From Naegleria gruberi (Eukaryota), in NCBI GenBank assembly GCA_000004985.1, contig GG738860.1: DNA of 64,000 nucleotides; one strand, written 5' to 3'. The notes under the pieces are model-generated. The model was not told the origin of the DNA. It made no database searches and worked only from the letters and a program-made list of their open reading frames with translations. The translations under genes were made by a program, and so were the position numbers. Within the stretch, counting starts at the first letter, position 1; each line of letters opens with the position of its first letter. This document shows positions 11,201-48,158 of this stretch, one piece after another.

Positions 11201-11231
11201 NNNNNNNNNNNNNNNNNNNNNNNNNNNNNNN
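2262..11231. other. Sized assembly gap of 8970 N. All ORF-track entries of the form 2130..13386 that consist of X residues are artefacts.
   Basis: Run of N. An isolated N also occurs at 2245. Confidence 1.
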
Positions 11232-14200
11232 TACTGGAACAATTGCCAAAGTCTTTTCTGCTCCATACGGTGTTAAAAGCTTCCACAAACTTGAGAATGG
11301 TAATTTTATTTTCGCAGAGAAAAATTATCCTAGAATTGCCCTTTTCAAGACCAATAGCAGCAAGATTATCTACTTGGCTGGTCAATACGAACAAGGTTAC
11401 GATCCAATCGTTATTTCTGACAATGTGTTAGCAACCACAACAAGTGTGAATCATCCTCGATCACTCTATGTAAAGAATGGAGAGCTCTATTTTGCAGATA
11501 CCTACAACTCTCTCGTGAGAAAAATCACCCTCTCAACAGGAGTTCTCTCAACCATTGCTGGTAATGGAGGTGAGCGTTTTTATGGGGATGGTGGATTGGG
11601 AACGAGTGCTTCTTTGAACTATCCATATGGAATTCACTTACATACTGATGGTTCTATCTACATTGCCGATACTTACAATAGTAAGATTAGAAAGTTAGAC
11701 TCTTCCAAAAAGATTAGCTCAGTTGCTGGAAATGGATATTTGGGATATTCGGACAATACTCAACCATTGAGAGCTTCATTCAATTTGGCAGTAAGCGTTC
11801 TCATTAACAACGTAGGGGACATGTACATTTCAGATTATGCAAACAATGTAATTAGAAAGATGAGCTCCTCTGGTGCCATTACAACTATTGCTGGACAAGC
11901 AAAGATTTCTGGTTTTGCTGATAGTTTAAATGCAAAGACTGCTCTATTGAATGGTCCATTTGGATTATATTATCAGGAATCCACACAAACTCTCTTTTTT
12001 GCTGACAGTCTCAATGGTAGAATAAGAAAGCTAACAAAGAATGGAGCAATTGAAACAGTTCTTGCTTCAATTAACGATCCAAGAGAAATCTCATTCCACA
12101 CAACCCATGGTCACATGTACTTTACTTCTGGAGGTGACCAAACCATTAAGGTTCTATTCTCCAATGGTACTCTTTCTGTGCTCAACATTCCAAAAGATTA
12201 CTACATTGGTCTCCATGTTGATTCCACTAATGATTATCTCTATGCAAGTGGTTATACATACATTTATAGATTTTCCATTGCAGGAGGTAGTAGCATTGAT
12301 CACAATCAAACCGATCCAATCATCGATAACATTTCTAAGAATTGTACTAAGGGATGTGAAAAGGGTGAATGTGTGAATGGAACTTGCGTCTGTAAGGAAA
12401 ATTATGGAGGTGAAATTTGTGATAGGCCAATGTGTTTTGGAAAATTGAGCAATGAGAGTGGTGTGTGTAATACTCACGGAGTTTGTCTGCAACCAAACGT
12501 TTGCTACTGTTACGGAAATTGGGAGGCCGAAGAATGCACCCAATGTAAGAGTGGATTTACTGGTTCTAATTGCAGAACCTGTGCCGATGGTTTTGTTGGA
12601 GAATTGTGTAATATCCCTATTTGTTTCAACGTATTTGCTAATGAATCAAACGTTTGTTCTGGACATGGTTCTTGCAAATCTCCAAACAATTGTTCATGCT
12701 TTGGAAATTGGGAGGGAGAAAGTTGTCAATCTTGTAAGGAGGGATACACTGGCTCAGAATGTGACACTCCAGTTTGTTTCGGGTTCAGNNNNNNNNNNNN
12801 NNNNNNNNNNNNNNNNNNNNNNNNNNNNNNNNNNNNNNNNNNNNNNNNNNNNNNNNNNNNNNNNNNNNNNNNNNNNNNNNNNNNNNNNNNNNNNNNNNNN
12901 NNNNNNNNNNNNNNNNNNNNNNNNNNNNNNNNNNNNNNNNNNNNNNNNNNNNNNNNNNNNTGGGTTGGAGATTGTGTGATTCCTGTCAAGCTGGATACAG
13001 TGGTTCAAATTGTGATATTCCTGTTTGTTTTGGATCAAGCGTTGAAGGAGATGGTTCTTTGGTTTGCTCAGGGCACGGTAACTGTTCAGGACCAGATATG
13101 TGCACTTGTAACGAAAACTGGTCTGGAAATGATTGTTCCACTTGTAGAGAAGGTTATTATGGAGAAGACTGCTCCTCATGTACACCTGGATTCAGTGGTG
13201 AGAGATGTGACATTCCTTCATGCTTTGGTATTTCAGCAAATGCTAGTAATGTATGTTCTGGAAATGGTTATTGTTTCAGTCCAGATTTGTGCTCCTGCTT
13301 TGAGAATTGGAAGGGTGAAAGTTGTAATCAATGCAGTAGCGATTACATTGGTGAATTGTGTGATATTCCGTCCTGTTTTGGAGTGAATGGTAATGATAGA
13401 TCAGTTTGTTCTGGTCATGGCTCTTGTATTACCCCATCCAATTGTTCTTGTTTCAATAACTGGGAAGGAGCAATGTGTGAAAATTGTCCAACAGGTTTCT
13501 CTGGAGATGACTGCAAATCCTGTGACGAAAGTCACACTGGAGAGGGATGTGATGTTCCAATCTGTTACGGCCTTGCAGCTAATAATGAAAGTGTTTGCTC
13601 TGGAAATGGCAAGTGCATTGAGTCCTCTGTATGTGTTTGTTCTGGTTTTTGGACTGGAGCTAATTGTGATACTTGTCCAGAAAAGTATTCAGGATCGGCT
13701 TGTGATGTGCCAGTTTGTTATGGAGTAAGCGCTAACGATTCTATGGTTTGCTCTGGACATGGTTCTTGTGTTGCACCTTCTCAATGTTTTTGTGAAGGAA
13801 GATGGGCTGGAGAATTGTGTGATTCCTGCGTGGCTGGATATAATGGTTCAAATTGTGAAAATCCAATCTGCTTTGGAGAATTCAACACCTCTATTGTTTG
13901 TTCTGGTCATGGTTTGTGCTCAGCACTAGATGTTTGTGTGTGTAGCGAGCAATGGGCTGGAGAAACTTGTGGCAAATGTAATTCTGGATATTACGGAATA
14001 ACTTGTGAGCTTTCTTGTGATCCACAAATAGTGAAACCATCTCTCACAATCAAGCAAGGTTCAATAATTTCCTATGTGATTGGAACTTCTATTGCTTTGG
14101 AACCAGAATTGACAATTCCATTGTGCTATGCCGGTCATTTCAGCTCCATTAGCTATGGATATGCTTCTGATTTCTTTAACCAATCTCAACTGGTTCAGGT

Positions 14201-22471: not shown

Positions 22472-24361
22472 TTGATGGACAATGGTATTTTGAGATTAAC
22501 ATTGATGTTCAACAATCATAAAAAAATGTCAGAACAAGACACACCATCTTTCTCCAACAATCCGTTTGGTGGTTTTTTTTCTTTCACACCCAATAACAAT
22601 ACAACAACAACAACAAATAATCCATTTGCTGCTTTTTTAAATACTTCTTTGGAAGAAGCCATTTCATCAAGACCAATATTTGGTGGCGGTACATCAGACA
22701 GTTCTTCTTCATCATTGGTTGATGTTGTTGATTCCCAACCAAAACAGGAAGAAACTAAATATTCAATCGACTCAGTGATTTCTGTATTTTCGGAGAGTAT
22801 TTTGGGGATTACAGAAAGTAAAGGTCGTCATCATCAAGTTTACTTGTTAGATATTTCTGATGTTTCAAATATTAGCAAGGTTATCATTTCAGAATTTGAC
22901 ATCAACGTCAAGGGTCAAGAACAAGTCAATTGTGGTTTTAAGAATGTTTCATTAGATTTTGAAAGTTTAGTCTTGAATAAGATTGAAAATGATTCTAAAA
23001 AAGTGAGAGGTGTATGTAAATTATTCAAGAGAGAATACCCTGTAATTGAAAGTGCAATTATTTCAGATTGGAAACCTCATTCAATGTCTTTAAATAATGT
23101 AATTAGAACTCAGGACTATACAGTTATTGGATTTGTTGATCAATTAGCTGTGGCAACAAAATTTGGATGTAAAAATCCATTCTTAGAAAATAGTTCCACA
23201 GAATGTCTTTTCACAGAAGAATTAATATTGGATTCTAATTCAGTAGATCAGTATGCTGCCATTGATACAGATAGCCCTCTAGTTGTACTTCTCCCTTGTG
23301 AAAATTGCAAGGAGAGAAAATATTCATTGAATGGTTTATGTTTCAATGGATCCATCTTCCTATTCGATTTGAAAGAAAGAAAATTTACAAAATCTGTGAA
23401 ATTTACTGATGAATCATTGGGAAAGCAATTTATTTTAAAGAGATTTATGGATAATCCAGAGTTTATTCCCTATTTAGATGGAAATAGATTGAGAAGTTTC
23501 GTTCTCTCTGAACAGAAACTTTATGAATTTTATTGGAATGTCCAGTATGAGGAATTGGTGTGTGTTGAACATTGCATGTGGGTTAGTGGTCAAATTTCAC
23601 AAGTTCGTATCACAGATGAAGAGTTTGGATTCATTATCTCCACATGGGATAAAAAAATAGTTTTATACAAACCAGGTCAAGTGGGAAAACCTTATAATGA
23701 AGGACACGTTAGAATTATAGAAAAGGAAAAAGTGCTTACTCCATCCATTTGGTGCTCAAAGAGTAAGGTTCTCTTTGAAAGGAGCACATATTACAATTAT
23801 GTTCCACTCAATTTTGAAAACCACAATCTTACATTAGAAGAAATCACCAAATCAGAGGTAAAGAATCCTTTTCAACTTTTCAATATAGCAGACTATGCTA
23901 AAGAATTTGAATTTTCATGCTATGATGAATTAATTGATAATTGTTTGAGTATTAAGAAAATCAAGGTTGGCAGAAAACTCAAAGGCCTTAGATCAGAATT
24001 TATTTACAAAGTCGATAACAAAGAATTAGCTGTCCTAGAATTGGAAATTATTGCTGGACTGACCTCTAATCAATCAACCATCATGGTAGAAACAACCTCC
24101 ATTAGACAAAGTGAAAATTTCAAATTATTGGAATTGAAAGATTTTACCAATTTTCTTGGAGCTCCAATTATTTACAAACGTAAAGATGAGAAGAAATTTC
24201 AGTTTACTTCTTTCATTGATTTAAAAGATGGAAAGAAATCTTCTGAAACTGTAATTTTTGGAGATATTAATGAAGGAAGTGGATCCACTTCAACATCATC
24301 AACACCAATATCCAATTTGGAATTTATTGGCCTTTTAGCACCAAAACAAACCAGGAATTAA
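22472..24361 (+). CDS. Hypothetical protein of 629 aa with an N/T-rich N-terminus and NPF/FG-like motifs
   Basis: Long single-exon ORF. NPFGGFF and NPFAAF motifs occur near the N-terminus. No catalytic motif is recognised. Confidence 0.6.
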   Translation: MMDNGILRLTLMFNNHKKMSEQDTPSFSNNPFGGFFSFTPNNNTTTTTNNPFAAFLNTSLEEAISSRPIFGGGTSDSSSSSLVDVVDSQPKQEETKYSIDSVISVFSESILGITESKGRHHQVYLLDISDVSNISKVIISEFDINVKGQEQVNCGFKNVSLDFESLVLNKIENDSKKVRGVCKLFKREYPVIESAIISDWKPHSMSLNNVIRTQDYTVIGFVDQLAVATKFGCKNPFLENSSTECLFTEELILDSNSVDQYAAIDTDSPLVVLLPCENCKERKYSLNGLCFNGSIFLFDLKERKFTKSVKFTDESLGKQFILKRFMDNPEFIPYLDGNRLRSFVLSEQKLYEFYWNVQYEELVCVEHCMWVSGQISQVRITDEEFGFIISTWDKKIVLYKPGQVGKPYNEGHVRIIEKEKVLTPSIWCSKSKVLFERSTYYNYVPLNFENHNLTLEEITKSEVKNPFQLFNIADYAKEFEFSCYDELIDNCLSIKKIKVGRKLKGLRSEFIYKVDNKELAVLELEIIAGLTSNQSTIMVETTSIRQSENFKLLELKDFTNFLGAPIIYKRKDEKKFQFTSFIDLKDGKKSSETVIFGDINEGSGSTSTSSTPISNLEFIGLLAPKQTRN

Positions 24362-24415: not shown

Positions 24416-25477
24416 CTAATTAATATCAATTGATTTTAATTGTTTCATTTCAATTATGAATTTGGCTACTTCATCACCAATTTGATTTCTACCAATATCA
24501 AGTGATGTTAATTGTTTCATTTCAATTATGAACTTGGCTCCTTCATCACCAATACAATTGTTACTAATATTAAGTGATGTTAATTGTTTCATTTCACTTA
24601 TGAACTTGGCTCCTTCAGCATAAATTTGATTGTCAGAAATATCAAGTGATGTTAATTGTTTCATTTCACTTATGAATTTGGCTCCTTCAGCATAAATTTG
24701 ATTGTTATTAATACCAAGTGATTTTAATTGTTTCATTTCACTTATGAACTTGGCTCCTTCCACACCAATACGATTGTTATTGACAGTAAGTGATGTTAAT
24801 TGTTTCATGTCACTTATGAATTTGGCTACTTCATCACCAATGTGATTTCTACCAATATCAAGTGATGTTAATTGTTTCATTTCACTTATTGGTTTGATTC
24901 CGTCTATACCAATCCAATCGTTATAAATATTAAGTGATTTTAATTGCTTCAGTTCACTTATGAATTTGGCTCCTTTATCATATATTCGATTTCCACCAAT
25001 ATCAAGTGATGTTAATTGTTTCATTTCACTTATTGATTTGGCTCCTTCAGCATAAATTAGATTGTAAGAAATATCAAGTGATGTTAATTGTTTCATCTTA
25101 GTCATTTCATTTATGAATTTAGGTGTTTCTTCAGAGTTAAACAACATTTCAGAAAATTTAACATCAACAATACTACTCATAAATCGACTATTCATGAATA
25201 ATTTAATTCTATATCCAGTAAATTTTTTTTTAAATTTAATAACCAGTTTGGAACGTTCCTTGATCACATTAAAGAATTGTTTTGAAATTAAAACGCAATT
25301 TTTTAAAATAAACCACGAATCATCAATCATGGAAATTATTTCAAAACAAATATCATCTGAAAATATTTCTTGTTCTGGGAGTGCAACAAGTTTTTTCTTT
25401 TTTGCCTTCTCCTCCATGTCATTATTGTCTAGCTCCTCCGAAATTAATATTTTTCTAATCCTGCTTCGTTTGCTCAT
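24416..25477 (-). CDS. F-box-like N-terminus followed by an RNI-type leucine-rich-repeat protein
   Basis: About ten 24-aa LRR units of the form AKFISEMKQLTSLDI..N.I..EG are encoded by 72-bp DNA repeats. The N-terminus carries the F-box-like segment ICFEIISMIDDSWFILKNCVLISKQFFNVI. The ATG lies at 25475-25477. Confidence 0.75.
   Translation of the reverse strand: MSKRSRIRKILISEELDNNDMEEKAKKKKLVALPEQEIFSDDICFEIISMIDDSWFILKNCVLISKQFFNVIKERSKLVIKFKKKFTGYRIKLFMNSRFMSSIVDVKFSEMLFNSEETPKFINEMTKMKQLTSLDISYNLIYAEGAKSISEMKQLTSLDIGGNRIYDKGAKFISELKQLKSLNIYNDWIGIDGIKPISEMKQLTSLDIGRNHIGDEVAKFISDMKQLTSLTVNNNRIGVEGAKFISEMKQLKSLGINNNQIYAEGAKFISEMKQLTSLDISDNQIYAEGAKFISEMKQLTSLNISNNCIGDEGAKFIIEMKQLTSLDIGRNQIGDEVAKFIIEMKQLKSIDIN
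24440..25110. repeat. Array of about ten tandem 72-bp repeats, near-identical at the DNA level, which encode the LRR units
   Basis: The anchor GTGATGTTAATTGTTTCATTTCACTTATGAA recurs at 24505, 24577, 24649 and so on with a 72-nt period. Confidence 0.7.
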
Positions 25478-25639
25478 TTTTTTTGTAAAATTTCTAAAGC
25501 GCTGTTTTTTGCTTGATATCAAGTAAGTGCTTTACAATTTCTTTTTACAATTCATGTTTGATTGACTTCAAACTTCCACCAATAATAAGAAAAAATTTTA
25601 ATGTGGAGGACTACGTGCTAAATTGTTGTGCAAAAAAAA

Positions 25640-26452
25640 ATGGCGCGAACCAAACAAACCAAAAGAAAAACATGCCCAAACACTGAAGAAGAACGAATCG
25701 AAAAGATTAAACAACGTAAAATCCTTCTTGGTCAAGAAAATCACTCATGGAAAAGAACCTCTCCTTCCTTCATTCTCTACCCGACCGATATTTCCATCCG
25801 CTGCACGATTACCAACTCTGAAACTGATCCGAATTCTAATCAATTATTATTATTATTGGGAAATAAGTTTGTAGAACATGTATGCTCTGATTCAACTTGT
25901 CATTGCGATCTTCCACGAATTAATTGGCAAAAAACTGGATTTTATACACAATTTTTTAGTGATGTTTTGGTTAACCCTAGAAATGATTATACGTTCCTAG
26001 GTGATGGGGAAGCTAGTGAAGAGTATTCAGAAAGGGCAATGAATATTCTTGAAAAAGTGTTAAATAATGTTCAAGCTTATGAAATGAATACGAAACTGAT
26101 CGAATGTGAAAGAAAAAAAGAAAGTATCAACAGTATTACCATTGAATATTCAACATGTGGATCAAAGTGTTATTACAAATCAAATTGTGATTATGAATAT
26201 GAATTTGTAGTATTACTAGTGAGCGAGGATGAACATCTTGCATTTGGACATATTGGATGTCATGCTTTCTATTTATTACCTGGATTGGAATATTTAAATT
26301 CAGATGGAAGTTCACCCAATGTCTGCTCTGATTCCATTATAACCTATGATGAGGAGAATGATATGTACCATCCAAATATTATTCCACTTTCTAAGGTTTT
26401 GAAAAAATCGAAAGAATTTTTAAGAAATGTTTTAGATGACAGATATCACTAG
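25640..26452 (+). CDS. Hypothetical Cys-containing protein of about 270 aa
   Basis: Single-exon ORF beginning MARTKQTKRK, with no recognised domain. Confidence 0.55.
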   Translation: MARTKQTKRKTCPNTEEERIEKIKQRKILLGQENHSWKRTSPSFILYPTDISIRCTITNSETDPNSNQLLLLLGNKFVEHVCSDSTCHCDLPRINWQKTGFYTQFFSDVLVNPRNDYTFLGDGEASEEYSERAMNILEKVLNNVQAYEMNTKLIECERKKESINSITIEYSTCGSKCYYKSNCDYEYEFVVLLVSEDEHLAFGHIGCHAFYLLPGLEYLNSDGSSPNVCSDSIITYDEENDMYHPNIIPLSKVLKKSKEFLRNVLDDRYH

Positions 26453-26598
26453 AGAGTTTATTTTACATATTTGAATTATTGACTGGTACTGTAACAATAA
26501 AATTTATTTTTTGAAACGACAAAATTTGGCGGGGCTGTGTAATGGAAGATCCATATTATTCGAAACAAAAAGAAAGTACCTACGTGAATATTTCGTAA

Positions 26599-27591
26599 AT
26601 GAATGAACTCCATTCACAATTAAAACAATTAGAAAAATCAGAAGAAATTCTTTCGGAAAATCCACACCGTTTCACTCTCTTTCCGATTCAATATCCTAAA
26701 CTGTGGGAAATTTATAAAAAGAGATTGGCATCTTCCATTTGGAGTGTTGAACAATTTGATCAAATTATTAGAAATGACATTTCTAAATTATCGGAAATTT
26801 GCAATTCTGATCACAGTTTCATCAAGATTATTCTTGCGTTTCTTGTTGCAAATTGTAAACAGAAAACAAATCTATGGGGAGCATTCAAAGATATTCAAAT
26901 ACTAGAAGCAAAACATTTCCACGGCTTTCGGCTGGCCATGAAGAATATTCATTACGAAATGTATTGTAATCTATTCGAAATTTTAACAGAAGAAACAGAA
27001 AGAAGTGAACTAATAGAAAAAATGATCAATTCAACCATGAAGAAATCTCAATATACAAAGAAATGGCTCAATTCTGACAATTTATTTTCTGAAAGATTGA
27101 TAGGTTTAGTTTGCATTGAACAGATTTTCCTTTCTGCAAGTTTCTTTTCCATTTTTTGGCTAAAGAAGCGTGGATTAATGTCAGCTTTAACAATTTCCAA
27201 CGATTTGATTTTCAGAGATGAAGAATTTCATTCCAATTTTTTATATTCTCTATATTCGAATTTGAAACATTCTAAACTTCCTCAAACTCTCGTTCATTCA
27301 CTTGTCAAGGAAGCAGTTGACATTGAAAAGGAATTTATTACAAGTTTACCCACTGAATTGATTGAATTGGATAGAAACTCCATGTATCAGTATGTGGAAG
27401 TAGTTTCAGATAACATTCTAATTTCATTTGGTTATGAAAAACTCTTCCATACTGAAAATCAATGTTCATGGATTCAAGACATGTTAATGAACAAGTCGGG
27501 TTTCTTCTGGAAAATTGGATTAGAATCCTATTCTTCCATTCCACATTTCCCAACCATTAACAATGAATTAAAATTGGATGAAGATTTTTAA
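26599..27591 (+). CDS. Ribonucleotide reductase small subunit (R2/RNR2 family), divergent
   Basis: It aligns along its full length with eukaryotic R2: FPIQYPKLWEIYKK, AMKNIHYEMY, IEQIFLSASFFSIFWLKKRGLM, RDEEFH, and a C-terminal R1-binding tail ending ...NELKLDEDF that resembles mouse ...NSFTLDADF. The ExxH ligand Glu is Lys in AMKNIH. The first Asp ligand appears to be Asn in LAFLVANC. Confidence 0.85.
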   Translation: MNELHSQLKQLEKSEEILSENPHRFTLFPIQYPKLWEIYKKRLASSIWSVEQFDQIIRNDISKLSEICNSDHSFIKIILAFLVANCKQKTNLWGAFKDIQILEAKHFHGFRLAMKNIHYEMYCNLFEILTEETERSELIEKMINSTMKKSQYTKKWLNSDNLFSERLIGLVCIEQIFLSASFFSIFWLKKRGLMSALTISNDLIFRDEEFHSNFLYSLYSNLKHSKLPQTLVHSLVKEAVDIEKEFITSLPTELIELDRNSMYQYVEVVSDNILISFGYEKLFHTENQCSWIQDMLMNKSGFFWKIGLESYSSIPHFPTINNELKLDEDF

Positions 27592-28234
27592 CCATTTTCC
27601 AAAACCTCAAATAATTTTGAACTACTTTATATATTTACAAGATTTTTTGAGCAAACAACTTATTGTTTTTGTTGGCTTAATGGTTGTTTTGATGTTGTGT
27701 TCCTTGTTCTTGGTAAACTTGTTCTGGATCAACTTGAGGATAAACTTGTTGGTAAGTATTTAGGGAGTGTTGTTCTCTTTGTGTTTGATAAGAAACTTGT
27801 TGTGGTTGAGTTTCTTGTTGACCTTGACTAATTGCTTTGGCTTGTTTCTTAATAAAAATGACTGAAATAATGGCAATCAATGGATAACCAATTGCAAACC
27901 AAACTCAGACTCATTCGCATTTGGCTGGCTGGTTCAGTAATTAGTCTTTCTCTCAATACAGACACTCCCTCCAATTAAGTAAATAGTCTCAAATATAGTT
28001 ATCACAATTTTGAAAATGATGGAAAAGGAAGCTCTGTTGTTCTTTCACATAAGTGTTTAATTGTTGACTACATTTCCGTACAACCAATTGATCGATTGAA
28101 ATCTGCTTGAACTAATCCAAGTCTTTTTCCTTTGAAAATGTCGTAAAACTGAACTGTACTCGACAAGTGTTCAATGTTCTCAGACTCTCAAAAAAAATTT
28201 GAGCCATCTTGAATCCATTGTAACTTTAAAAAAA

Positions 28235-28999
28235 ATGGCAAACATGATTACTGACATTCCCAATGATGTTCTATTAGACATTCTCTCCGATTTTGACCTA
28301 AAAGATTTATTCAATCTCTCACTCTGTAATCAATTCTTTTTAAAATTAATATTCAATCAGACATTGAAAGATTTCTCCAAGTTTAATCTTGTTAAAAATC
28401 TATCCGAAAAGCCAATACTCTCCCGATACGAATTTAGATATACGAAAGATGAGAAGGATTTTGAATTTTGTAAAACTCAGAATAGAATTTGGAGAATTCA
28501 TTTGATTTCCTACTTTCCCAAATTTAAAAGTGATTTGAATGTGAAAAATTGGCTCCATGTATTGAGGTGGGTAGTTTACAAAGTTTACAATAATTCCAAT
28601 ATTGAAACTCTTACATTTTTTATTTTAATGAAATATTGATTATTTATCATGAAAAGGAGGAGAATTCTCCATTTGAAATTGTATGATCCATCCAAATTAC
28701 CCCTCACTCCAAATACAAATAGTAAATCATTCGAGGTGGAGAAGCCAATCTTTGTACATAGTAACAATGACTCGAAATTTATTGAAGGTTGTGAATGGAT
28801 TTATAAGTGTCCACTCAAATATGAAGAATTATCATTTTTGAAGGAGAATTCAAGATTATGTAAGGAATGTTCCAAAGTTGTTTATTTTGTGAATAATATT
28901 GAGGATTTTACGGAAAAGATTGAGGAAGGAAAGTGTGTAGCATATCAAGCAAAGGTTAAAACGAATTATGTTATTCACATGGGAAGAAAATGTTTTTAA
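28235..28999 (+). CDS. F-box-like protein. ORFs 28199..28639 and 28649..28999 share a frame and are separated by one in-frame stop, so they are either one gene with a short intron or two adjacent genes.
   Basis: F-box-like N-terminus IPNDVLLDILSDFDLKDLFNLSLCNQFF. The downstream segment is Cys-containing, with C-x2-C in KECSKV. Confidence 0.45.
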
Positions 29000-29770: not shown

Positions 29771-31514
29771 ATGAAAAAAACCGTTGTAAATAATAAGGCA
29801 GACTCATCGGCAACAAAACCAACATTTCAACCGGAGACTTCACATAAGAAGGCCCTTTCAATTTATGGAGGCAGTGCAAAGACGGTAGTAGCTCCCACTG
29901 CTGTGTCTACCTCAAAATCAAATTCTCAGCAAGCAAAAAAAGTTCCGATAATTGTTGATGCTTCTTCTGGTAGTAGTAGTAAATCACAAACAAAAGTTTC
30001 AATTAAGACGGCAACTGTGTCGTCTCAAAAGGATGCCTCTGTTACTCAATCGAAAGAAGAGAAATTAAAGGAATTGTTTGCTCAATTACCTCAAGAAATT
30101 GTGTTGCAAGTTTTGGATTATTATGTTGGTTCGGGATTTAAAGCTTGTTTTCCAAGATTTGAAAAATTGGCAAATACTAATTTTAAGGAAGCATTTGAAT
30201 ACGATTCTTTGAGTTTTGATGAATCAATGTTTTACAAACAATATTTTGGAAAGTTCAAAAACAGAGGAGACACAAACCCAAAACCTATTTTCTGGAGGTC
30301 AGCAAGTGAAAATCTTGTAGATTTAAATAGAATTTCTAAGGAATTCCATTACTTGTTATCATTGCAAATTTAGGTCGAGAACCTATTGATATTTATTACA
30401 AAAAGTTGTGTACTTTATATTTTGCAATTAGAAAGAAAAGACCAAGTGATCTGGAGCAAATAGAGACCAGAAGATTGAATTATATTGCTAATATTTTCGA
30501 GAAGGATAAAGGCTTATGTGAAAAGGTTAAAATTCTTGATTTTTACGGATTGGAAACGTTTGAAGGGACTATTGATTTTGCAGCAAATAATTTTCCAAAT
30601 ATAGAAATACTAACACTAGGGTTTCAACAAGGATTACTAAAGGTTATGAATTTCGTAGAACAATAGATATGTACCAAATTGTTTCTGCAATCTGCAAAAT
30701 GAGCAAATTGAAGGAGTTCAAATTTAAGGGAAGGAACTTTTACTTTGAGGGCATTGAAGAAATCTCAAAGTCAACACCTCTTATTCAGAAATTTTCACTC
30801 ATAGGCTCTAGATCAATTCTTGAATGTGGTAAATCTATTGGAAATTGGAAACATTTAAGAGAAATAGAAGGAGCAGTCCATTCCTACTTTGATAATAGTT
30901 CCATTGCAACTCCACCAACTCCACAAGAACAAACAAATTTCTTCACAGTCATTAATGAAATTAATTTAGAAAAGTTAGAGCTGCTGAATGATGATATTTC
31001 CAGTGCCAAGTTCCATAAACTGCCATCTTCACTCATAACTCTTAACTTGGAAAGAACAAGAGTTAGTTCTAAATTATTTGAAGCAATTTCAGAGTTGGAA
31101 AATCTCAAGATTCTTATTCTTGACAGCACATCTGGGTTCGAAAGTGAAGATTTCCAACATCTCAATAGTTTGCCAAACCTTGAAGAGTTATCACTTAATA
31201 AGAGTTCTCATTGTGGAGATGTTGGGTTGAAACACATCTCTGCCGTTAAAAGTTTGAAAAGAGTTTTCTTGAACAAGTGTGAGATACATGATGAAGGAGG
31301 AATCTCACTTTCCAAATTGAGTAATCTTGAAATTATTGACCTTCAATATTCTGATATTACAGAGAAAACAATTAACAATATTGTTCAAAACTGTAAGAAA
31401 ATCAAAAAGATTTGCGTGTATAAATGTCAGAAAATCTCTAAAAATAAGATAGCTGACCTTCCCAACATAAAACAGATTCTCTCAGAAAATCCAATCAACA
31501 GAGAGTATTATTAA
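29771..31514 (+). CDS. F-box/LRR (FBXL-like) protein. The ORF track splits it into three frame segments, 29771..30373, 30406..30666 and 30669..31514, and the junctions are unresolved.
   Basis: F-box LPQEIVLQVLDYYVG. Cys-containing LRRs run in all three segments (LNSLPNLEELSLNKSSHCGDVGLKHISAVKSLKRVFLNKC). Each junction needs a -1 frame correction. Confidence 0.55.
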
Positions 31515-35705: not shown

Positions 35706-38675
35706 ATGTTCGGAAGTACAAACAATAAGACTCAATACAATTTTGAAACCACTTCAACAACACCTTTCCAACAACAATTACACAATGAATCAACGAGAAC
35801 TCCAAACACAGCACTAAACAATCTGATCGGAAGAAAATTAATCGATACTAGTCTCTATTCTACTGATTATTCAACAACTGAGGATGCTTCAGTGTTCTAT
35901 ACTCCCCATTCAAACTTGGGAGGCCAGCAAGCCGACATGTTAAAGAAGAACTCTTGCCCTCAAAATCCACCAATTTCAAACACTACCAAATTTGCCCAAG
36001 CACCCTTTGGTTCATTCAATAACGAATTGAGGGGTCAATTCAAGTCATCATCTCAAATCAATAACCATACTCAAACGAGTGGTAACAATAGTTTACTTCG
36101 CAGAGCCATCTCTCAAAAGTATTCACCAAATGTTGCAGCAAACACTGTAACTTTTATAAGTAATAACACGACAGCAAGTACTGAGGATTTGGAAGATGAT
36201 TGCTTTGGATCTCCAACAACACCATCCTCGTATCATCAACAGTATGAAGTTATGACTTCAGATTCTGCAACACCAGTTTCAAAGCTTAGTACGAGTACCA
36301 TTTCCAAGAAATCTCCCCTTCTGACCGATGATTATTCCTCCCATCAATCTACTAATAAGAGTACAACAGGATGTAACACTTTGAGTAGTGGCAGGACCAA
36401 GTCAAGTGAGGCACTTTCATCTACCAAATCATCGTGGTCCAAGCCAAAAGCTTGTCACAGTTTTAAGATTGATAATCCATTTCTCAATGACAAGAGTCAT
36501 TTAAATGAAAATTATTCTTGCTCGTATGTGAGAGAGGACAATTTCATGGCCAATCATCACTTTAATCGTCACAATACCAGTGGTCATTGTAATAATAGAG
36601 AGAAGAAAGCCATTTTTGAATTAAGCGTCAATGAAGAAGATTTGAGAATACTCGAGGAGGGTATTCCATATCAAAACAATTCATCATCCAACACAACGTG
36701 GTTTAATACTACCATTCAACCACAACAATTTTCCAATAATAAGGAAGAGACAATCAAACCAGTCAACCCAATTTCACCTCCATTTTTGAATTCACCACAA
36801 AGAGATCATCAAGGCAATTTTACCAAGAGCCAAATCGAGACTGACAAAAGCTACAATAACATTAGCAAATCTTCCACTAGTAAGGACTCTGCAAGGTATT
36901 TATCAATAATAGACCATCAACATACTATTGCATCCACCAATTATGAAAATAACAAGTTAGAGAAAATCCATACTGATCACTGTGATCCATCACATCAAAT
37001 TGATACCGCACGATGTGTTCCAAAAAATTCTACATTTGAAATCAATCTTGATGGGTCGAGAAGTTGTACATCAAGCAATGATAAGCTGCAAGACTTTAAA
37101 AGTTGTATGGAAGAAGTGCAAGAAAGTGCAAAATTCCAGCCTGAAAAAAAACAAACATCATCTCGAGGCACTACATCTGCTGTGTTTTGCTCGAGTATCA
37201 TCACTCATACTGCTGCTGAAACAGGAATTGAGAATAATCCTCTACTTGACGATTGTACTTTCCTACCATCACCAATATTACCAAAGGAGAGTGTCAGGTC
37301 AAACAATACATCGACTCTACATATCATTGATCATTCTTTATTGTTCAGAGACGATCAAGAAGAAGAAGAAACCAAGTCAATCGAAAAGACAACTTTGGTT
37401 AAGCCTGATATTAATAGCAGAGAATCAACACAAGGCGACAAGATGCTTCAAGCAGTTTCCATCAGAAATGATTTGAACCACTTTTCTAATCAACTCCAAT
37501 TTGTAAGAATGCCAATTGGTGGTAACAAGGCTAGACATCAACAACAAGAACAACCAATGGTCACCCTAAAGAAAGTTACTACCACACCAAAGAAGAATAT
37601 TCTCAAGCAAGAGATTAATAGACCTGCTGCTATTTCCGAATTGGCTTGCTCATTCAAAGCTAATGACGGATTTTTCATGAATCAAAGCATACTTCATCAA
37701 GATGATATGGACATTGATGATTGTGAGGAATTCGAAAAGAATAAGCAAAGATTCAAGAACAAGTTCATCAAGAGAAGAGCCAAACTCTTACTCAACTCTG
37801 AACAAGTCAATATCATTACAGCTAGAAGCTTGAGTGAAAATCTGAGAATTGTCACTGAAAAGGCTTGCCTTCTTCAAAAGCTCAAATTACAACTTGAAGA
37901 AAAGACCTTGGCCATCCAACGTGTTTGTGATAGAATTGTCCATGAAGATTTATCTTGGCAATTGGAAGATATCATTACAGAGTCAACAACCTTTTGGTCA
38001 ACATGTGATCAAGTGAATACTGCCTCACCTTTCTCTGTTCTTCAATTTTTAAATAAGGTCTGTGAATCTGAGAATGAAATCATCAATGCCATTGAAGATT
38101 TGATTGACTTTGTCATTACCTCAGCAAAGAGAATGTGTAAAAAGCATTCTTTAAACATTAATATAATCCTAGATACAATCAGAGAGTCTGCTGCTATAGA
38201 ATTATCGAGTACAAGATCATACACCCAACTCAAATCTGCTGCCAGTAAGCAGCAACAACGTTCCTCCTCTACCAAACCATCCACCACCATTAATCACCAC
38301 ATTTCCTCTAACTTTTCTCCAATCACATCCTTCTCCTCCACTAGTGAATATAGCCTATACTCGATGAAACCATCCAACAAGAATATCACCAATTTTGAGC
38401 ATACCACAACACCTGAAACACTTGACCAAGTTTTTGATATCAAGAAGAGAAGCGAGCTCTTTGAAATTATTGATAATAACGTAGATACAGTGCTGGATAT
38501 TTGTTCTGCCATTCGTCACTATGCCAGTGATGAAAAGATGGAAGCTCTTGATACTGTATTTGAGGAAAAGTTTTCAGCATATTGCAAGATTTTGGATGAA
38601 ATGAAAAATTACTCTGGTATTGATTTTGATATTTCCCTTAGTGGTTCAGATGTCTGTGGTGTTTCCTTTTACTAA
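35706..38675 (+). CDS. Large S/T/N-rich hypothetical protein of 989 aa
   Basis: Single-exon ORF that is mostly low-complexity, with a structured C-terminal 250 aa. Confidence 0.6.
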   Translation: MFGSTNNKTQYNFETTSTTPFQQQLHNESTRTPNTALNNLIGRKLIDTSLYSTDYSTTEDASVFYTPHSNLGGQQADMLKKNSCPQNPPISNTTKFAQAPFGSFNNELRGQFKSSSQINNHTQTSGNNSLLRRAISQKYSPNVAANTVTFISNNTTASTEDLEDDCFGSPTTPSSYHQQYEVMTSDSATPVSKLSTSTISKKSPLLTDDYSSHQSTNKSTTGCNTLSSGRTKSSEALSSTKSSWSKPKACHSFKIDNPFLNDKSHLNENYSCSYVREDNFMANHHFNRHNTSGHCNNREKKAIFELSVNEEDLRILEEGIPYQNNSSSNTTWFNTTIQPQQFSNNKEETIKPVNPISPPFLNSPQRDHQGNFTKSQIETDKSYNNISKSSTSKDSARYLSIIDHQHTIASTNYENNKLEKIHTDHCDPSHQIDTARCVPKNSTFEINLDGSRSCTSSNDKLQDFKSCMEEVQESAKFQPEKKQTSSRGTTSAVFCSSIITHTAAETGIENNPLLDDCTFLPSPILPKESVRSNNTSTLHIIDHSLLFRDDQEEEETKSIEKTTLVKPDINSRESTQGDKMLQAVSIRNDLNHFSNQLQFVRMPIGGNKARHQQQEQPMVTLKKVTTTPKKNILKQEINRPAAISELACSFKANDGFFMNQSILHQDDMDIDDCEEFEKNKQRFKNKFIKRRAKLLLNSEQVNIITARSLSENLRIVTEKACLLQKLKLQLEEKTLAIQRVCDRIVHEDLSWQLEDIITESTTFWSTCDQVNTASPFSVLQFLNKVCESENEIINAIEDLIDFVITSAKRMCKKHSLNINIILDTIRESAAIELSSTRSYTQLKSAASKQQQRSSSTKPSTTINHHISSNFSPITSFSSTSEYSLYSMKPSNKNITNFEHTTTPETLDQVFDIKKRSELFEIIDNNVDTVLDICSAIRHYASDEKMEALDTVFEEKFSAYCKILDEMKNYSGIDFDISLSGSDVCGVSFY

Positions 38676-42438: not shown

Positions 42439-45400
42439 TCAGTTTGATTTAAGGAGCGATCTAAGCTTTCCAAGTAGGTTAATCACAAAACAGATTAAGA
42501 ACGGAATGGTCCATATAGTATCATCCTGTTCCTCCTCTTTTTTGGTTGTTTTCACAGTTGTGGGATAATGTTGATCATCCTCTTGCCTGCCGTGTTGATG
42601 AGATTCCTTTTCCTTCTCTCCAAAATATTCCTCAGGTTCCTCAATATCATCATCCTCTTGGTCAACTTCCTGGTCATCCTCAATATCTTGTTCTTCCTTT
42701 TTTTGAGCTTCTAATGTTTCTGGATCTTCTGAATAGAGTGTTGGAAAATGCTTACAAAAACACCTTAATGACAAGCCAATATTAATCACATATTCCAAGT
42801 AAGATTTACCATTCATTTCAACCACTCGAGGCTTAAAGTATTTACCATTAATTGGCAACATCATGGAATTATACATATTGTCTAACTGAATTCTCTTACG
42901 ACGTGTTGACTCTGGAAGAAAATCTGAATTGGAGGAGAAGGCTTTGAGATTCACAAGGCAAACATTATTGCTAATAGAGTTGTAGTCAAAGGAACATAGA
43001 GTTAATTTGATTGTATCCTGGAGAGTTTTGTTTTCTAACAGCTCAGTAGTGCCGCCACTCTTTTCATTCATATAAATTCCAAGTGCAAATTTAAATCCAA
43101 AAACTTCGAATTGATCTCCAAATATCCAAGTTTCATGAGTTTTCATACAGACACGAATGACACATGTTTGGATAAGGGTTGGGAACTTGTTTGCCAATGT
43201 GTAAATAAATGAAGGATAATTGGTTGAAGAAAGGTCCTTTCGTCCATTATGAATAATTTCCTCATTAAAATCTTGAATTGGTTCGAATTGTAAATTTCTC
43301 AATCCTACCACAAATTTGTAAACTAGAAAATCATCATTTCTTGAATAAGGTTCTAAGAATTTCTTTTTTACATGATAGCTCATGACCCTTCCATTCCAAT
43401 TAATTTTTCTGCTATTGGAAAAGTATGTTTGGGGTTCGAAATCATAATTACACATGACAATATCCACCATTCCCCTTTGCTTAGTTTCTGGTTTAGTTTG
43501 TTGTAGATTAATTTTGAAACTGTCTTTAGTGGAATATAGCACGTATTTAGGATTTGGAATAAACTCAATACACCATTCGTATCCTAGTGCATTAAAAGTT
43601 GTGCTTGTATACTCTTCATTTCTCAAATATTGATCAAGCAAGGGAACTTTAACCAACACTTCATTCAATATAAATTCCTTTCTATTAAACAAATTTGTGA
43701 AATATTCCAAATCTTTCTCAAGAATTGGTGATGTCTCAGTACTAGGTTTAAGAACCTGAATTGTCTTGTGTGAGTGTTTGTAAAATTCATGCCCAATTAG
43801 AAACTCAATAAAACTATTCATTATCTTCTTGGCTGGAATGAAATGTTTTAGAGCTCCTTTTGCAATTTTCACAATATCGAACCCAGAGAATGATGTTAAA
43901 TCCTGTTCTCCACTGATAAAATCAGTAAACAGTCTTTCGATAATGGCACTCGTCTCATCTGGAATGTCATTTTTCAGCATTAAATAACTAAGAGTCTCAA
44001 TAACTGTAGAGTAGTATCCCAAATCAAGTAAAATTGGTGCAAACTGGCAAAAAGCTATTGAGGATCTTCTGGAAATGTTCTCCAAATATCCAATTTCAAC
44101 CTTGGTGAATTCAATTTTCTTTTCATTCCACATCTTGTTAATTACTGGGAGAATTGAAGTGGCATCCCTAAGGTATGAATCATATCTGTAAGATTTGAGG
44201 AAAAGTTTGCAAATTTCGTCTAGATTTGGAATATCTTCAATTTGGTTTCCAAAATGGTGAAAAAGGCCAATAATAATTACATATGCTTCTTTCATATCTT
44301 GTGATTTCACTCTTTCCTTCACAGCTGACACTACTGAGTCAATTTTCGTATAGTCAAGTTTAGGATATAAAAGATTGCGCTTATCCATTTTTTGAGTCTT
44401 TCGTATTATGCAAACCTTTGGTGTTTCCTGACAAAATATGGAGAATTGTGAACCTAGTACTGAATCACTGAAGCAATCCCAAAGCAAAACCCTACAATTC
44501 GTAAACTTTTTCAAATGTTCAATAGTTTCTAATGTGAGATCAGTATTGTATATAACAATGAGATCGTCCAATTGATAAGACATTGGTATAATTTTCTCAA
44601 AGAACCCATCTTGTAATTTTGAATTTTCAAATGAAAGTTTTTGTAAATTGACTGCTGATAGTAACATGTCAGAGAATCCACGTTCCATACCAGTTATTTC
44701 TCCACTAAATTTGATGGTGAGTAGAAATTTTGGGAGCTTACATTGAGAATAATCATTAATCATTTCAGGAACATGCAAAATTAAACTATGTAAATTGGAG
44801 AAATTTGTCAATTTGGAGAAGTGATGAATGTTTCCATTATTCAGTTCCAACTGGAGATACTTCATAGTATCCTGTGGCAGCATATCAACCAATGATGCAC
44901 AACTATTATTTGAATGGAGCTTTTCCAATTTGCATTCTTTCATTGATTCTAATTGCTTTCGAATAAAAGTATTTGTGGATTTATCTTCACCATTTACCAC
45001 CAATTCCACCAAGTTTTCACATTCAAATTCTACATTATCAATGGCATTCTTCCCATAGTTCCAACTCAGCTTTTTCAAATCTTTTGTAATGAAAGACTTG
45101 ACAATATCAATATAGTCATCACAATCAAAATTTCCGATTGTTAAAGAATGCAGAGAAAGATTTTCATGTAATTTGGCAAGTATTTCCATGTCTGTGAGAA
45201 TAACATGTAAGGATTCCTTAAAGTTCAATTGTAAAGTTGCTAAATTAGACAGCTTGCTCAAACAATTCAATAATGGATCAATCACACGACTAGCATTTGA
45301 TATTGAAAGTGTGTTGATTGTTAGATTTTCAAGAGTTGGTGCAAGATTACTCAAATTCATGTGCCAGTTTGTGAAAGTTTGACTCGTTGTGAAATTCCAA

Positions 45401-46298
45401 ATCAATTCGAGAGTCTTCAAGTTTGGAAATGAGTTTGATTTTTCGAATACTGAATAGAAAGGACCATGGATTGCATAATCATTCTTATAATTATAATCAT
45501 AAACCAATTCCATTTTCTTAATTGTTTTAGAATATTTTGAAAGTGCCATCTTGGCTGCTTTGTCATTATACGGTATAAATTTCAATTCTGTTAAATTCTC
45601 ACACTGCTCTGTAAATTGTGAAACAACCTTATCAGTTATCATCACAGTTTCAAAGGAAAGGCATTCTAGTGATCTAGGAAAGTTCATTTTCGTGCAACTC
45701 AAATCATCTTTATAATATGAATGGCCCAGGTAAGTGAAAGATATTTCAAGTTTTTTGAGATTTTGAAATTCATTGAAAAATTGAAAACTATCCAATTCCA
45801 AATCACAAACTGATAAACTTTGTAAAGTTTCCAATATTGGGCTCTTATTAGAAATCCATTTGGAAATAAAACCTGCACAATTATTCAACAAACCCTTCCC
45901 AAATTTTAATTCTTCAACTTTCTTCAACTTTCCAATTTCAACCAATCCAAAACCTTGAAATTATTAAAATTCTTGCAAGAAAATTCACTCAACTTACCAT
46001 CAACCCGAATATTATTTAATTTTCCCTCGAAAAAATTACAATCAATTCTTGTCAAATTTTCCAATTTGATCAAATAATTGTCAATTATTTCACACAAAAT
46101 CCGATCGGTGGCTGAGGAACGAATTGTAAAGGTTGTCTTGTTGTGGATCAGATAATTATTCACCCATTCGAAAAAGTGTGTTGAAACCAATCTCAAATTA
46201 AATAAATGGTGGTTTTCTTTCAAGAAGCAAAACACATGTTGAATGAAGAGTTCTGCAGGTAATTCCAACAGTTTCATTTTTTTCTTCTGGAATTGCAA
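42439..46298 (-). CDS. Large F-box-like/LRR protein of about 1270 aa. Two exons, 45998..46298 and 42439..45953.
   Basis: A 44-nt intron at 45954..45997 has a GTAAGT donor and a ..TTTCAAG acceptor, joining ...NNIRVD|G|FGLVEIGKLKK. The N-terminus is F-box-like (LPAELFIQHVFCFLKENHHLFNLRLVSTHFF). LRR-like repeats run throughout. Confidence 0.7.
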
Positions 46299-46431: not shown

Positions 46432-48158
46432 TTATTCATCTTCATCACTTATGCAATACCAATTCATTTCATTCCATTTTCTCAATTTTTTAAATCCAAA
46501 AGAAGTAATCAATGAGCTTTCCTTGATACCAATATTTCTCAATAATTTCAGTACTGTTTCATTTGTTTCTGCATTAAAATTATTCCATAAATAATCAATA
46601 TCATCATCAGAAAAGTAATATCCCAAACGATTCAAATTCTTGAAGGTTTCATTCTTTGCCAATATTTCAACAAAATCAATATCAACCACTTGCTCCTCAT
46701 CAATTTCATCACCTTCATTATAAACTGAAAGATCTCGTAAATTTACGAGAATATTTGATTTGGCAAGATATTCTAAATCTGATATTGTTGATGGCATGGA
46801 CAAGTGTAAAGTATTAAGGTTGGAAAAGTATTGGGAATCTGAATAAAATAACTTGAACCCATTCAAGCAACTATTGGCTTTGTGAATTTCCAAACATTCA
46901 AGAGATTTTGCGGTCGAATTAATGACACTAACCAAATGGTCAGAACCGTGTTCTAGTTTGACTTTTCCATTTATGAGTAATATTTGGAGATTGCTAATAT
47001 AGTTGGATTGCATAATTTCATCAATATCACGAACTTGACTCAAAAATTCTAAATATGTCATATTACTCAATGTTTCATTCTCTGAAAGTGATAAAACTCC
47101 CTTATTCGATATTTGAAACAGTGTTAAACTTTCTAACATTGGCATTTTGAACCTACAAACAAGATCGGTAGCAAAGGATGAACAATCAAAAGTTAATGAT
47201 ACTAAATTTGGACATTCGATATTGATTTCCTCATTTTCCTTCTCACTACGCAATTCGAACCAGTCTCCCTCATCAATAGTACAATATCTCAGGGATGGAC
47301 ATTCAAAAATCTCGAACAACTCTGCAAAAGAACAAGTGGCAGTCAAATTGTGCAATGTCAAATATTCTAATACTGGTAATGATGCAATGTAAGAAATTCC
47401 ACTCGCATCCATATTTTCCAACTCCAAACTCCTCAAACAATTAGTATATCTGTTGACGTATAGAGCTACATTATTCAAGCGTTTAGTACCTCTAATTGTC
47501 AGTGATGTTAAATTGTGCAACAAGTGTGAATCCAGATACATTCTTCCCTCTCCTGTCATCCAAAAATCCAAACGTTTAATATTCATAATGTTTACATTAT
47601 CCAAATCTGAGAATAAGAGTTCAGATTGCAAACAGAGCTTTAGGCTTTTTAAATTTCCAAATTGTTGAATATATCAGCAGGTCTGTCATATTCAGAAGAT
47701 GTTATTATTGCATTTTCCATAGAGTTGAAATATTTAGATTTTACAAACTCAATCAAATCTGGTCTATTCTCATCTAAATAATAATGGAATTGCCTCAAAT
47801 GTCCAACTGCTCTATAAAATTGTTTAGAAACAAGTAAAAGCTTAAAACCCTCCAAATTTGGCAAATAGGATAGAATGACAGCAATTACATCATCACAGGC
47901 ATTTTCCATCACATTTTGCCGATGTTTCTTCTTTGAATTTTTTAACTTTGCTTCATCACAAATATTTGAATATTTTCTCTTCCGATCCAGTATTTCCAAT
48001 TCCAAGTGTAAATGCTTAGTACGTTCCCTAGCCATCAGGAGTTGAAATATTTGATCGGAGTTCAATCCCACATCATTCAATGCTACCAATTCATTGTTAA
48101 GATTTCCATCAGAAATATTTTTTACATCTTGATTGGATAAAGATGGTTGTAGAGACAT
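46432..48158 (-). CDS. F-box/LRR protein with a -1 frame disruption near 47632-47650, so it is either a pseudogene or an assembly error
   Basis: The upstream ORF 47649..48302 carries the F-box VIAVILSYLPNLEGFKLLLVSKQFYRAV. The downstream ORF 46432..47631 carries LRRs. No GT donor is available before the stop, so an intron cannot repair the break. Confidence 0.5.

Follow-up and report, generated by a model that had tools for sequence, protein, structure and literature searches.

A ligand-deficient, fast-evolving R2 paralogue of Naegleria gruberi: a candidate non-catalytic subunit of ribonucleotide reductase

The stretch of DNA analysed here (the window) comprises 64 000 nucleotides of contig GG738860.1 from the Naegleria gruberi assembly GCA_000004985.1. 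On its plus strand, at positions 26599–27591, it carries a gene for an unusual small subunit (R2) of ribonucleotide reductase (RNR), whose product is referred to below as divergent R2. The protein keeps only four of the six metal ligands of class I R2 (Asp, Glu-x-x-His, Glu, Glu-x-x-His). It coexists in the genome with two canonical, ligand-complete R2 paralogues, and it has changed much faster than they have while its reading frame, its fold and its R1-binding tail were kept. We consider, with moderate confidence and by analogy with yeast, that divergent R2 is an independently evolved, non-catalytic subunit of the Rnr4 (beta-prime) kind.

Divergent R2 is identical over its whole length to the N. 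gruberi protein XP_002678788.1 (EFC46044.1; NAEGRDRAFT_32493; UniProt D2VB17). This entry bears no annotation beyond 'predicted protein' and, when proteins are clustered at 90% identity, stands alone in its cluster. In the literature searched, we found no paper citing any of the accession numbers of the gene; the literature searched on Naegleria RNR and iron likewise gave no expression data on it. The open reading frame (ORF) list and the translation agree on 330 uninterrupted codons. The positions of the gene, of its diagnostic residues and of the other features of the window are reported in table 1.

Identity of the protein and its metal site

The initial annotation had recognized the protein as R2 from its motifs, all of which are present: FPIQY, AMKNIH, YEMY, CIEQIF, RDEEFH and the C-terminal LKLDEDF. 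The identification, as a class I small subunit of the eukaryotic type (clade R2_e1 of PMC3824934), is borne out by the Pfam profile PF00268, which matches divergent R2 from end to end (E = 2.1e-64; 218 bits, with a cut-off of 33.6; profile positions 1–280 of 281), and by the solved R2 chains of Plasmodium, yeast, mouse and human, which match it at E values of about 1e-59 to 1e-61 (phmmer against the PDB). Several strongly conserved blocks of the family are also kept, namely FWLKKRGLM, SN.LI.RDE and EAV.IEKEF. The AlphaFold2 model, built from a 150-sequence alignment, has a mean predicted local distance difference test (pLDDT) score of 81.8 and a predicted template modelling (pTM) score of 0.83; only the tail (residues 311–325) is disordered. 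All of the top 24 Foldseek matches of this model are eukaryotic R2 proteins, with template modelling (TM) scores to the target of up to 0.90. The best of them include the R2 of P. vivax, human and yeast (0.78–0.90), and the Rnr4 structures are 28–30% identical to divergent R2.

The ligand columns were read from phmmer alignments with PDB chains, from MAFFT alignments and from a profile hidden Markov model (HMM) of 149 canonical R2s. The bridging Glu of the first ExxH motif (the equivalent of E. coli E115) is replaced by Lys in divergent R2 (K115), which has AMKNIH where the canonical proteins have IENIH. This substitution, which the initial annotation had read directly from an AAG codon, is unambiguous in each of the alignments.

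The other lost ligand is the Asp equivalent to E. coli D84, part of the canonical motif 'AASDG'. Divergent R2 is one residue shorter in the helix that bears this ligand, and the occupant of the column depends on the method: C86 with phmmer and N85 with MAFFT, while the 149-sequence profile HMM deletes the column. All three aligners agree that there is no Asp or Glu in the segment 82-LVANCKQKT-90. Of the change from Asp to Asn that had been proposed by eye, the loss of the Asp is therefore retained, and the naming of Asn as its replacement is not. With the profile alignment, neither of the two ligand columns holds an acidic residue.

The remaining four ligands (H118, E174, E208 and H211) and the radical-site Tyr (Y122) are kept, as had been noticed from the sequence. 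The Trp and the Asp of the radical-transfer path are also present (W48 and D207). Beside the ligand E208, divergent R2 has acquired a new Glu (E209), in a column that elsewhere holds Gly with more than 95% conservation. When 384 R2 sequences are placed on a common profile, 331 of them show the full canonical pattern, and the combination of residues found in divergent R2 is unique to it.

Established R2 chemistry leads one to expect that normal di-iron assembly and the generation of the tyrosyl radical fail when metal site 1 has neither its only Asp nor the bridging Glu. Because both of these residues are lost and a Lys now lies centrally in the site, divergent R2 alone, as judged from its sequence, almost certainly cannot build the di-iron/tyrosyl-radical cofactor.

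The C-terminal tail presents a different pattern. Residues 311–323 are unconserved and have low pLDDT values, yet the terminal motif is intact: it reads LKLDEDF in divergent R2, FRLDDDF in the canonical R2s of N. gruberi and F.LDEDF in the family consensus, and binding to R1 is predicted. In length, the tail does not differ from that of the canonical proteins. Within it, the column of the conserved 'GEY' Tyr (the equivalent of E. coli Y356) is occupied by S310, and a Tyr is found one residue further on (Y311).

Canonical paralogues, origin and rate of change

The key question left by the initial annotation was whether the genome encodes a second, canonical R2. Two such proteins were recovered by a search with the closest match of divergent R2, a Naegleria-type R2 from a metagenome: XP_002671386.1 (NAEGRDRAFT_56348) and XP_002680453.1 (NAEGRDRAFT_31365). 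Each has all six ligands, in the motifs AASDG, IENIH, EMY, VEGIFF and RDEGLH, and divergent R2 is not the sole R2 of this organism. The two are 91% identical to each other and are encoded on scaffolds other than that of divergent R2. They belong to the same family and have a length of 338 amino acids, compared with 330 for divergent R2. The same search also found the R2s of N. lovaniensis, N. fowleri and Willaertia magna. The NrdA and NrdB of N. gruberi have previously been listed among the eukaryotic class I RNRs (PMC3019208).

Divergent R2 is 45–49% identical to the R2s of Naegleria and Willaertia (BLAST or MAFFT), with 45–47% to the canonical N. gruberi pair by BLAST. The identity falls from 47–49% for this group to 41–42% with other Heterolobosea (Percolomonas and Acrasis) and to 39–41% with plants, fungi and the eukaryote-like R2s of Bacteroidota. 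An N-terminus of the form MN..L...KQLEK.EEIL.ENPHRF, in a region that is otherwise variable, is common to divergent R2 and the Naegleria/Willaertia R2s, and a one-residue insertion in LK(H/Y/F)(S/T)KLPQ is shared by divergent R2, Naegleria, Willaertia and the other Heterolobosea. In a neighbour-joining tree, divergent R2 falls inside the Naegleria + Willaertia clade with a bootstrap value of 83%, which applies to the clade as a whole and not to any position within it. This tree contained no sequence of the apicomplexan R2_e2 group and left out the ligand-deficient R2s of Chlorella (see below). A first tree that included the latter joined divergent R2 to them and was discarded as an artefact of long-branch attraction.

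No orthologue of divergent R2 was found in any of the collections searched. Among 5.8 billion proteins examined by a word-indexed search, the best non-self match is a canonical Naegleria-type R2 (46% identity), and in an exhaustive phmmer search of 1.84 billion cluster representatives the next-best match has 40% identity. A scan of metagenome contigs gave a single match, which is canonical (39%). A scan of viral contigs gave none, which argues against an origin of divergent R2 from a giant virus. The proteomes of N. fowleri, N. lovaniensis and W. magna contain canonical R2 copies only. On these sequence data, divergent R2 would be either a duplicate of the N. gruberi lineage alone or one that has been lost everywhere else. 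We propose that an ordinary R2 of the Naegleria/Willaertia type was duplicated and gave rise to a lineage-specific third copy in N. gruberi.

R2 duplication seems to be common in the Naegleria/Willaertia group. In N. fowleri there is a 198-residue R2 fragment model (XP_044558344.1) beside the full-length canonical R2, and W. magna has extra canonical copies in the same 90% clusters (including KAL9655564.1). The match lists also contain R2s of Bacteroidota that are 71–73% identical to the canonical Naegleria R2 and are intermingled with the eukaryotic sequences. This is consistent with the published transfer of R2 from eukaryotes to Bacteroidetes, for which N. gruberi counts as one of the closest neighbours on the eukaryotic side (PMC3019208).

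The rate of change differs strongly between the paralogues. In a relative-rate (Tajima) test, about 100 changes are unique to divergent R2, compared with 6–14 on the canonical Naegleria/Willaertia R2 (p about 1e-17), a pace about 8–16 times that of the canonical lineages. The same contrast is seen in the near-invariant columns, defined as the 131–133 columns that are at least 95% conserved across 149 canonical R2s. Divergent R2 departs from the consensus in 56–57 of them, whereas the other sequences have a median of 1 and a maximum of 13. The canonical R2s of N. gruberi depart from it in about 2 of 131 columns; the corresponding figures are 45 of 131 for Rnr4 and 2–5 of 131 for the canonical R2s compared alongside.

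Synonymous differences (dS) are saturated and the NG86 method yields no value for the ratio of non-synonymous to synonymous substitution rates (dN/dS). Simulations of ORF retention, the conservativeness of substitutions and relative-rate tests were used in its place. The codon reference was an 87%-identical, Naegleria-type canonical R2 gene located on a metagenome contig (L001) of another species. Simulated neutral decay of the canonical Naegleria-type gene, with the base composition of the window, kept an open frame in none of 3000 runs at 50% amino acid identity. The simulated sequences had accumulated 14 stops on average, and the Poisson expectation of an open frame is about 9e-7. The indels of divergent R2 are all in frame. 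Its mismatches are more conservative than those of simulated neutral sequences (mean BLOSUM62 score of +0.06 compared with -0.62 ± 0.13), and the identity, which is 32% in variable columns, climbs steadily with conservation and reaches 59% where conservation is highest. Codon positions differ unequally, with 0.59 at third positions compared with 0.36 at first and 0.30 at second positions. Because of the open frame, the in-frame indels, the conservative mismatches and the third-position excess, we conclude that the ORF and the fold of divergent R2 are still under selection and not in neutral decay.

Functional readings and genomic setting

The suggestion, made in the initial annotation, that the protein is an Rnr4-like partner of a catalytic R2 is strengthened by these results. 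Ligand-complete R2s are present in the genome, the two altered ligand columns are non-acidic, and the protein combines accelerated, Rnr4-like divergence with a kept ORF, fold and tail; it is from these features that we infer a partner role. The preservation of the fold, of the conserved blocks and of the R1-binding end is, as far as it can be read from the sequence, the signature of a protein still working in the RNR complex.

The course of events that we envisage is as follows. After the duplication, the new copy would have changed about 10 times faster than its paralogues and lost the Asp and the bridging Glu, the latter becoming Lys. Selection would have retained an R2-shaped folded protein with an R1-binding C-terminal tail. 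Such a beta-prime subunit could pair with a canonical beta (NAEGRDRAFT_56348 or NAEGRDRAFT_31365), dock on R1 via its LDEDF tail, or both. It would stabilize, help to load or regulate a single active beta, as do Rnr4 in yeast and PfR4 in Plasmodium.

Several observations weigh against this interpretation. No orthologue that would attest to a long-term conservation of the derived state was found in N. fowleri, N. lovaniensis, Willaertia or elsewhere among the sequences searched. The GC content at third codon positions (GC3) is 0.28, close to the genomic background, compared with 0.50 in the canonical gene on L001, which is from another species; this suggests a low expression of divergent R2. 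Finally, the radical-site Tyr, W48, D207 and four ligands remain, and with them some room for a residual or altered metal or radical chemistry, to which we give a very low probability (see below).

The same orphan status and background GC3, together with the tenfold faster change and the loss of catalytic ligands, would be expected if divergent R2 were a decaying duplicate that has recently lost its function or is barely expressed, and that drifts with its open frame left over. We regard this as improbable. A frame of 330 codons has stayed intact after about 50% amino acid divergence in a gene with a GC content of 31%, an outcome with an expectation of about 1e-6 under neutrality. Only in-frame indels occurred, and substitutions were conservative and avoided the columns conserved in the family. 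Moreover, the terminal R1-binding motif is kept beside a scrambled tail, and the fold is predicted confidently.

The promoter region bears on a second alternative. An E2F-like motif, TTTGGCGG, is located upstream of the ATG of divergent R2. It was noticed post hoc and is a tentative promoter element: it is the sole match to TTTSGCGS in the window, for the whole of which 0.82 matches are expected. In animals as in plants, the genes of RNR are textbook targets of E2F. The E2F/DP/pRb system has been reported across eukaryotes, including Excavata (PMC4862756). The motif, if real, would suggest a regulation of the S-phase type and thereby a function within RNR. On L001, the 390 nt that precede the canonical R2 gene are free of E2F-like motifs. 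At positions ~694–733 of that contig, ~85–125 nt upstream of the ATG, there is a palindrome, GTGTAACGGTT...AACCGTTACAC, with Myb-like YAACGG cores.

In this second alternative, divergent R2 would be a regulatory decoy, the R2 shape and tail of which occupy R1 or a canonical beta without supplying a radical, thereby damping the enzyme, for instance at times other than S phase or while the cells differentiate. The retention of the tail without a full set of cofactor ligands would suit such a role, as would the Ser in the tail Tyr column, since the displacement of the Tyr by one residue could break radical transfer through divergent R2. A helper is also not obviously needed where two canonical betas exist. 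However, the literature searched presents the experimentally studied ligand-deficient paralogues, Rnr4 and PfR4, as parts of the enzyme complex, and the upstream E2F-like motif, if real, suggests co-expression with S-phase genes rather than the opposite regulation. We consider a decoy unlikely, to much the same degree as a decaying duplicate.

The extreme divergence and the remodelled metal site could also indicate that the ferritin-like four-helix bundle has been put to use outside RNR, for example in ligand binding or as a scaffold (cf. R2lox). This is quite unlikely, given that the C-terminal R1-binding heptapeptide, useless outside RNR, is conserved, that divergent R2 has no new domain, signal or extension, and that its closest folds are all R2 subunits of RNR.

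It is still a little less probable that divergent R2 generates radicals with an unconventional cofactor, either at a mononuclear or heterometallic site formed by H118, E174, E208 and H211, with K115 in site 1, or by means of a metal-free modified Tyr of the class Ie type. The kept Y122, W48, D207 and ligands and the new E209 beside the site are compatible with this, and class Ie provides examples of active R2 proteins that have a Lys in the site and no more than three ligands (PMC11846895). These enzymes, however, retain the Asp, replace all three Glu, derive from class Ib and depend on NrdI, none of which fits the present case. The coexistence of canonical R2s means that nothing forces divergent R2 to be active; conserved second-shell residues are widely lost, and the tail Tyr is displaced. 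Other eukaryotic ligand-deficient R2s, Rnr4 included, keep Tyr and Trp without activity. Because Rnr4 has kept its Tyr, its Trp and its tail, the presence of the Tyr and Trp in divergent R2 would be no argument for activity. An active or semi-active, mononuclear-metal or metal-sparing R2 (His118/Glu174/Glu208/His211, with Lys115 in site 1 and Cys86/Asn85 nearby) is the least probable of all, although, if true, it would be an iron-economy variant of class Ia RNR unseen before in eukaryotes.

The window has a GC content of about 32% and corresponds to N. gruberi nuclear DNA. The neighbours of the divergent R2 gene are genes of an ordinary kind for an amoeba and encode a class-3 lipase, leucine-rich repeat (LRR) and F-box proteins, kinases, an RGS protein and MFS transporters. 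The window contains no second R2-like sequence. In the neighbourhood of divergent R2 there is no R1 and no redoxin, and none of the surrounding genes is related to nucleotide metabolism. The F-box and LRR genes clustered around it look like members of the expanded Naegleria family of such genes. The nearest of them codes for 368 amino acids, with near-identical 24-residue repeats of the form MKQLTSL(D/N)I..N.IG.EGAKFISE. Five long ORFs have no Pfam match at E ≤ 1e-3 or 1e-4, and may be lineage-specific genes or pieces of intron-bearing genes. The largest of the assembly gaps yields spurious 'ORFs' of 3000 amino acids in every frame of the ORF list.

Table 1. Divergent R2 gene, its diagnostic residues and other features of the window. 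Residue numbers refer to divergent R2.
Feature	Position	Strand	Basis or remark
Divergent R2 coding sequence, single exon, 330 amino acids + stop	26599–27591	+	ORF listing and translation
TTTGGCGG, E2F-like motif, tentative promoter element	26525–26532	+	67–74 nt upstream of the divergent R2 ATG; noticed post hoc
N85, C86 (AAT TGT) at the lost Asp ligand site	26851–26856	+	alignments and codons
K115 (AAG) in place of the bridging Glu of the first ExxH	26941–26943	+	all alignments and codon
H118 (CAT, 26950–26952) and radical-site Y122 (TAT, 26962–26964), kept	26950–26964	+	profile alignment, codons
E174 (GAA) in CIEQIF, kept Glu ligand (E. coli E204 equivalent)	27118–27120	+	profile alignment, codon
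D207-E208-E209-F210-H211: second ExxH (E208, H211) and D207, kept	27217–27231	+	profile alignment, codons
E309-S310-Y311, flexible tail	27523–27531	+	equal-length tail alignment; residue numbers from sequence
LKLDEDF, C-terminal heptapeptide, R1-binding tail motif	27568–27588	+	alignment
F-box/LRR gene flanking the R2 gene	24416–25522	-	
F-box/LRR gene flanking the R2 gene	28199–28639	+	
F-box/LRR gene flanking the R2 gene	30669–31514	+	
F-box/LRR gene flanking the R2 gene	46432–47631	-	
Long ORF without Pfam match (the five range over 274–1168 amino acids)	25628–26452	+	
Long ORF without Pfam match	22472–24361	+	
Long ORF without Pfam match	35706–38675	+	
Long ORF without Pfam match	42439–45945	-	
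Long ORF without Pfam match	49475–50893	-	
Assembly gaps (runs of N)	1030–1079, 2262–11231, 12789–12960		window sequence

Comparison with known R2 systems

The closest functional parallel to divergent R2 is Rnr4 of yeast (Y4, beta-prime; PDB 1jk0_B and 1sms). Rnr4 lacks three iron ligands, is unable to hold a di-iron centre and is about 55% identical to Rnr2; it evolves under a dN/dS of 0.50, compared with 0.12 for Rnr2, which it stabilizes in an obligate heterodimer (PMC2704937). Like divergent R2, it is a paralogue, with incomplete ligands, of a canonical R2 of the same genome. Both proteins are accelerated (45 and 56 of the 131 near-invariant columns, respectively) and both have kept the radical-site Tyr, the Trp, the fold and a tail ending in D(D/E)DF.

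The two defects are not alike in detail. The initial annotation had described Rnr4 as ligand-deficient in the same way, which does not hold. Rnr4 (sequence of PDB 1jk0_B) keeps the first Asp and Glu, in SSD and MENI-, and has lost His (to Tyr), Glu (to Arg) and His (to Tyr), whereas in divergent R2 the two His and the second and third Glu remain, the Asp is missing and the first Glu has become Lys. The overlap between the conserved columns changed in divergent R2 and those changed in Rnr4 is not significant (Fisher p = 0.19). Orthology with Rnr4 was rejected, since divergent R2 groups with the Naegleria/Willaertia R2s (in the neighbour-joining tree described above) and not with the fungal sequences. 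The ligand defect is thus convergent with that of Rnr4 and not homologous to it. Rnr4 is also found throughout the yeasts and its heterodimer has been shown experimentally, while divergent R2 is an orphan of one species, known from its sequence.

A second parallel is provided by the apicomplexan R2_e2 group, to which PfR4 of Plasmodium falciparum belongs; for PfR4 an alpha2-beta-beta' complex has been reported (PMC3824934). Like divergent R2, R2_e2 is a non-canonical, long-branch R2 that occurs beside a canonical one and has a conserved C-terminal R1-binding motif. It is, however, an old clade, restricted to Apicomplexa but present in several genera, and sister to all canonical eukaryotic R2s. 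Its radical Tyr is often missing, its C-terminal Tyr is missing, and the role ascribed to it is that of a complementary subunit without a radical (PMC3824934). Divergent R2, in contrast, is a young offshoot within the R2 clade of its own host and keeps the radical-site Tyr. Membership of R2_e2 was rejected because divergent R2 nests in the heterolobosean canonical clade, a judgement that rests on this nesting, the tree containing no R2_e2 sequence.

Two further classes of R2 were also compared. In class Ie (the VPK and QSK variants of NrdF), all three Glu are replaced (by Q or V, S or P, and K), the Asp and both His are kept, and the radical is carried by 3,4-dihydroxyphenylalanine (DOPA); the class is derived from bacterial class Ib and needs NrdI (PMC11846895). 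The Lys at a metal-binding Glu position and the possession of fewer than six ligands are shared with divergent R2. Assignment to class Ie was rejected because divergent R2 replaces one Glu only, has lost the Asp and is of eukaryotic class Ia ancestry. Class Ic (Mn/Fe, Chlamydia type) has Phe or another non-Tyr residue at the radical site and complete ligands, whereas divergent R2 keeps the Tyr and has incomplete ligands, and this class was also rejected. The Chlamydia NrdB is only a distant match to divergent R2 (E about 1e-11).

Other ligand-deficient R2s were found in a survey that drew on the 150 nearest cluster representatives. They include proteins of Chlorella sorokiniana (PRW20806.1), C. 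ohadii (KAI7841796.1), Parachlorella kessleri (GAB4819391.1) and the foraminifer Nonionella stella, and the further sequences P0312, P0314, P0323, P0362, P0378 and P0380, one of which resembles a relative of yeast Rnr4. These proteins are about as divergent as yeast Rnr4, with changes in 50–61 of the 131 near-invariant columns, and the ligands they have lost differ from those lost in divergent R2. Those of Chlorella and Parachlorella, unlike divergent R2, also lack the radical Tyr. With 31–36% identity to divergent R2, they are related to it at the family level only. An acidic C-terminal tail of the (D/E)xDF or SDEF type is present in all four of those checked. A metagenomic R2 of 482 amino acids from the Joint Genome Institute (P0276) shows the same Glu-to-Lys replacement at the first ExxH as its lone ligand change and is otherwise rather close to the canonical type, with 21 of the 131 conserved columns altered; it is unrelated to divergent R2 (35% identity).

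The survey suggests, from sequence comparison, that R2 partners devoid of a cofactor have arisen on many occasions. In PMC2704937 and PMC3824934, the yeast and apicomplexan cases are the only ones described. The beta-prime class is a functional class and not a clade, and divergent R2 is an independent new case of a repeatedly evolved kind that was already known. If our interpretation of it as a non-catalytic beta-prime subunit is true, Heterolobosea join budding yeasts and apicomplexans in having independently turned a duplicated R2 into a cofactor-less partner, as green algae (Chlorella and its relatives), a foraminifer and the sources of the further sequences listed above also appear to have done, and the beta-beta' architecture is a recurrent evolutionary solution and not an oddity of yeast. 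The practical impact is modest: the annotation 'predicted protein' can be corrected, and divergent R2 is not a drug target, because it is absent from the pathogen N. fowleri.

A young case of this kind, standing among canonical copies that have remained nearly unchanged, would provide a natural experiment on the features of R2 that are needed for a partner role. In Naegleria, the Asp and the bridging Glu would be dispensable for such a role, while the fold, the Tyr/Trp region and the R1-binding tail would not.

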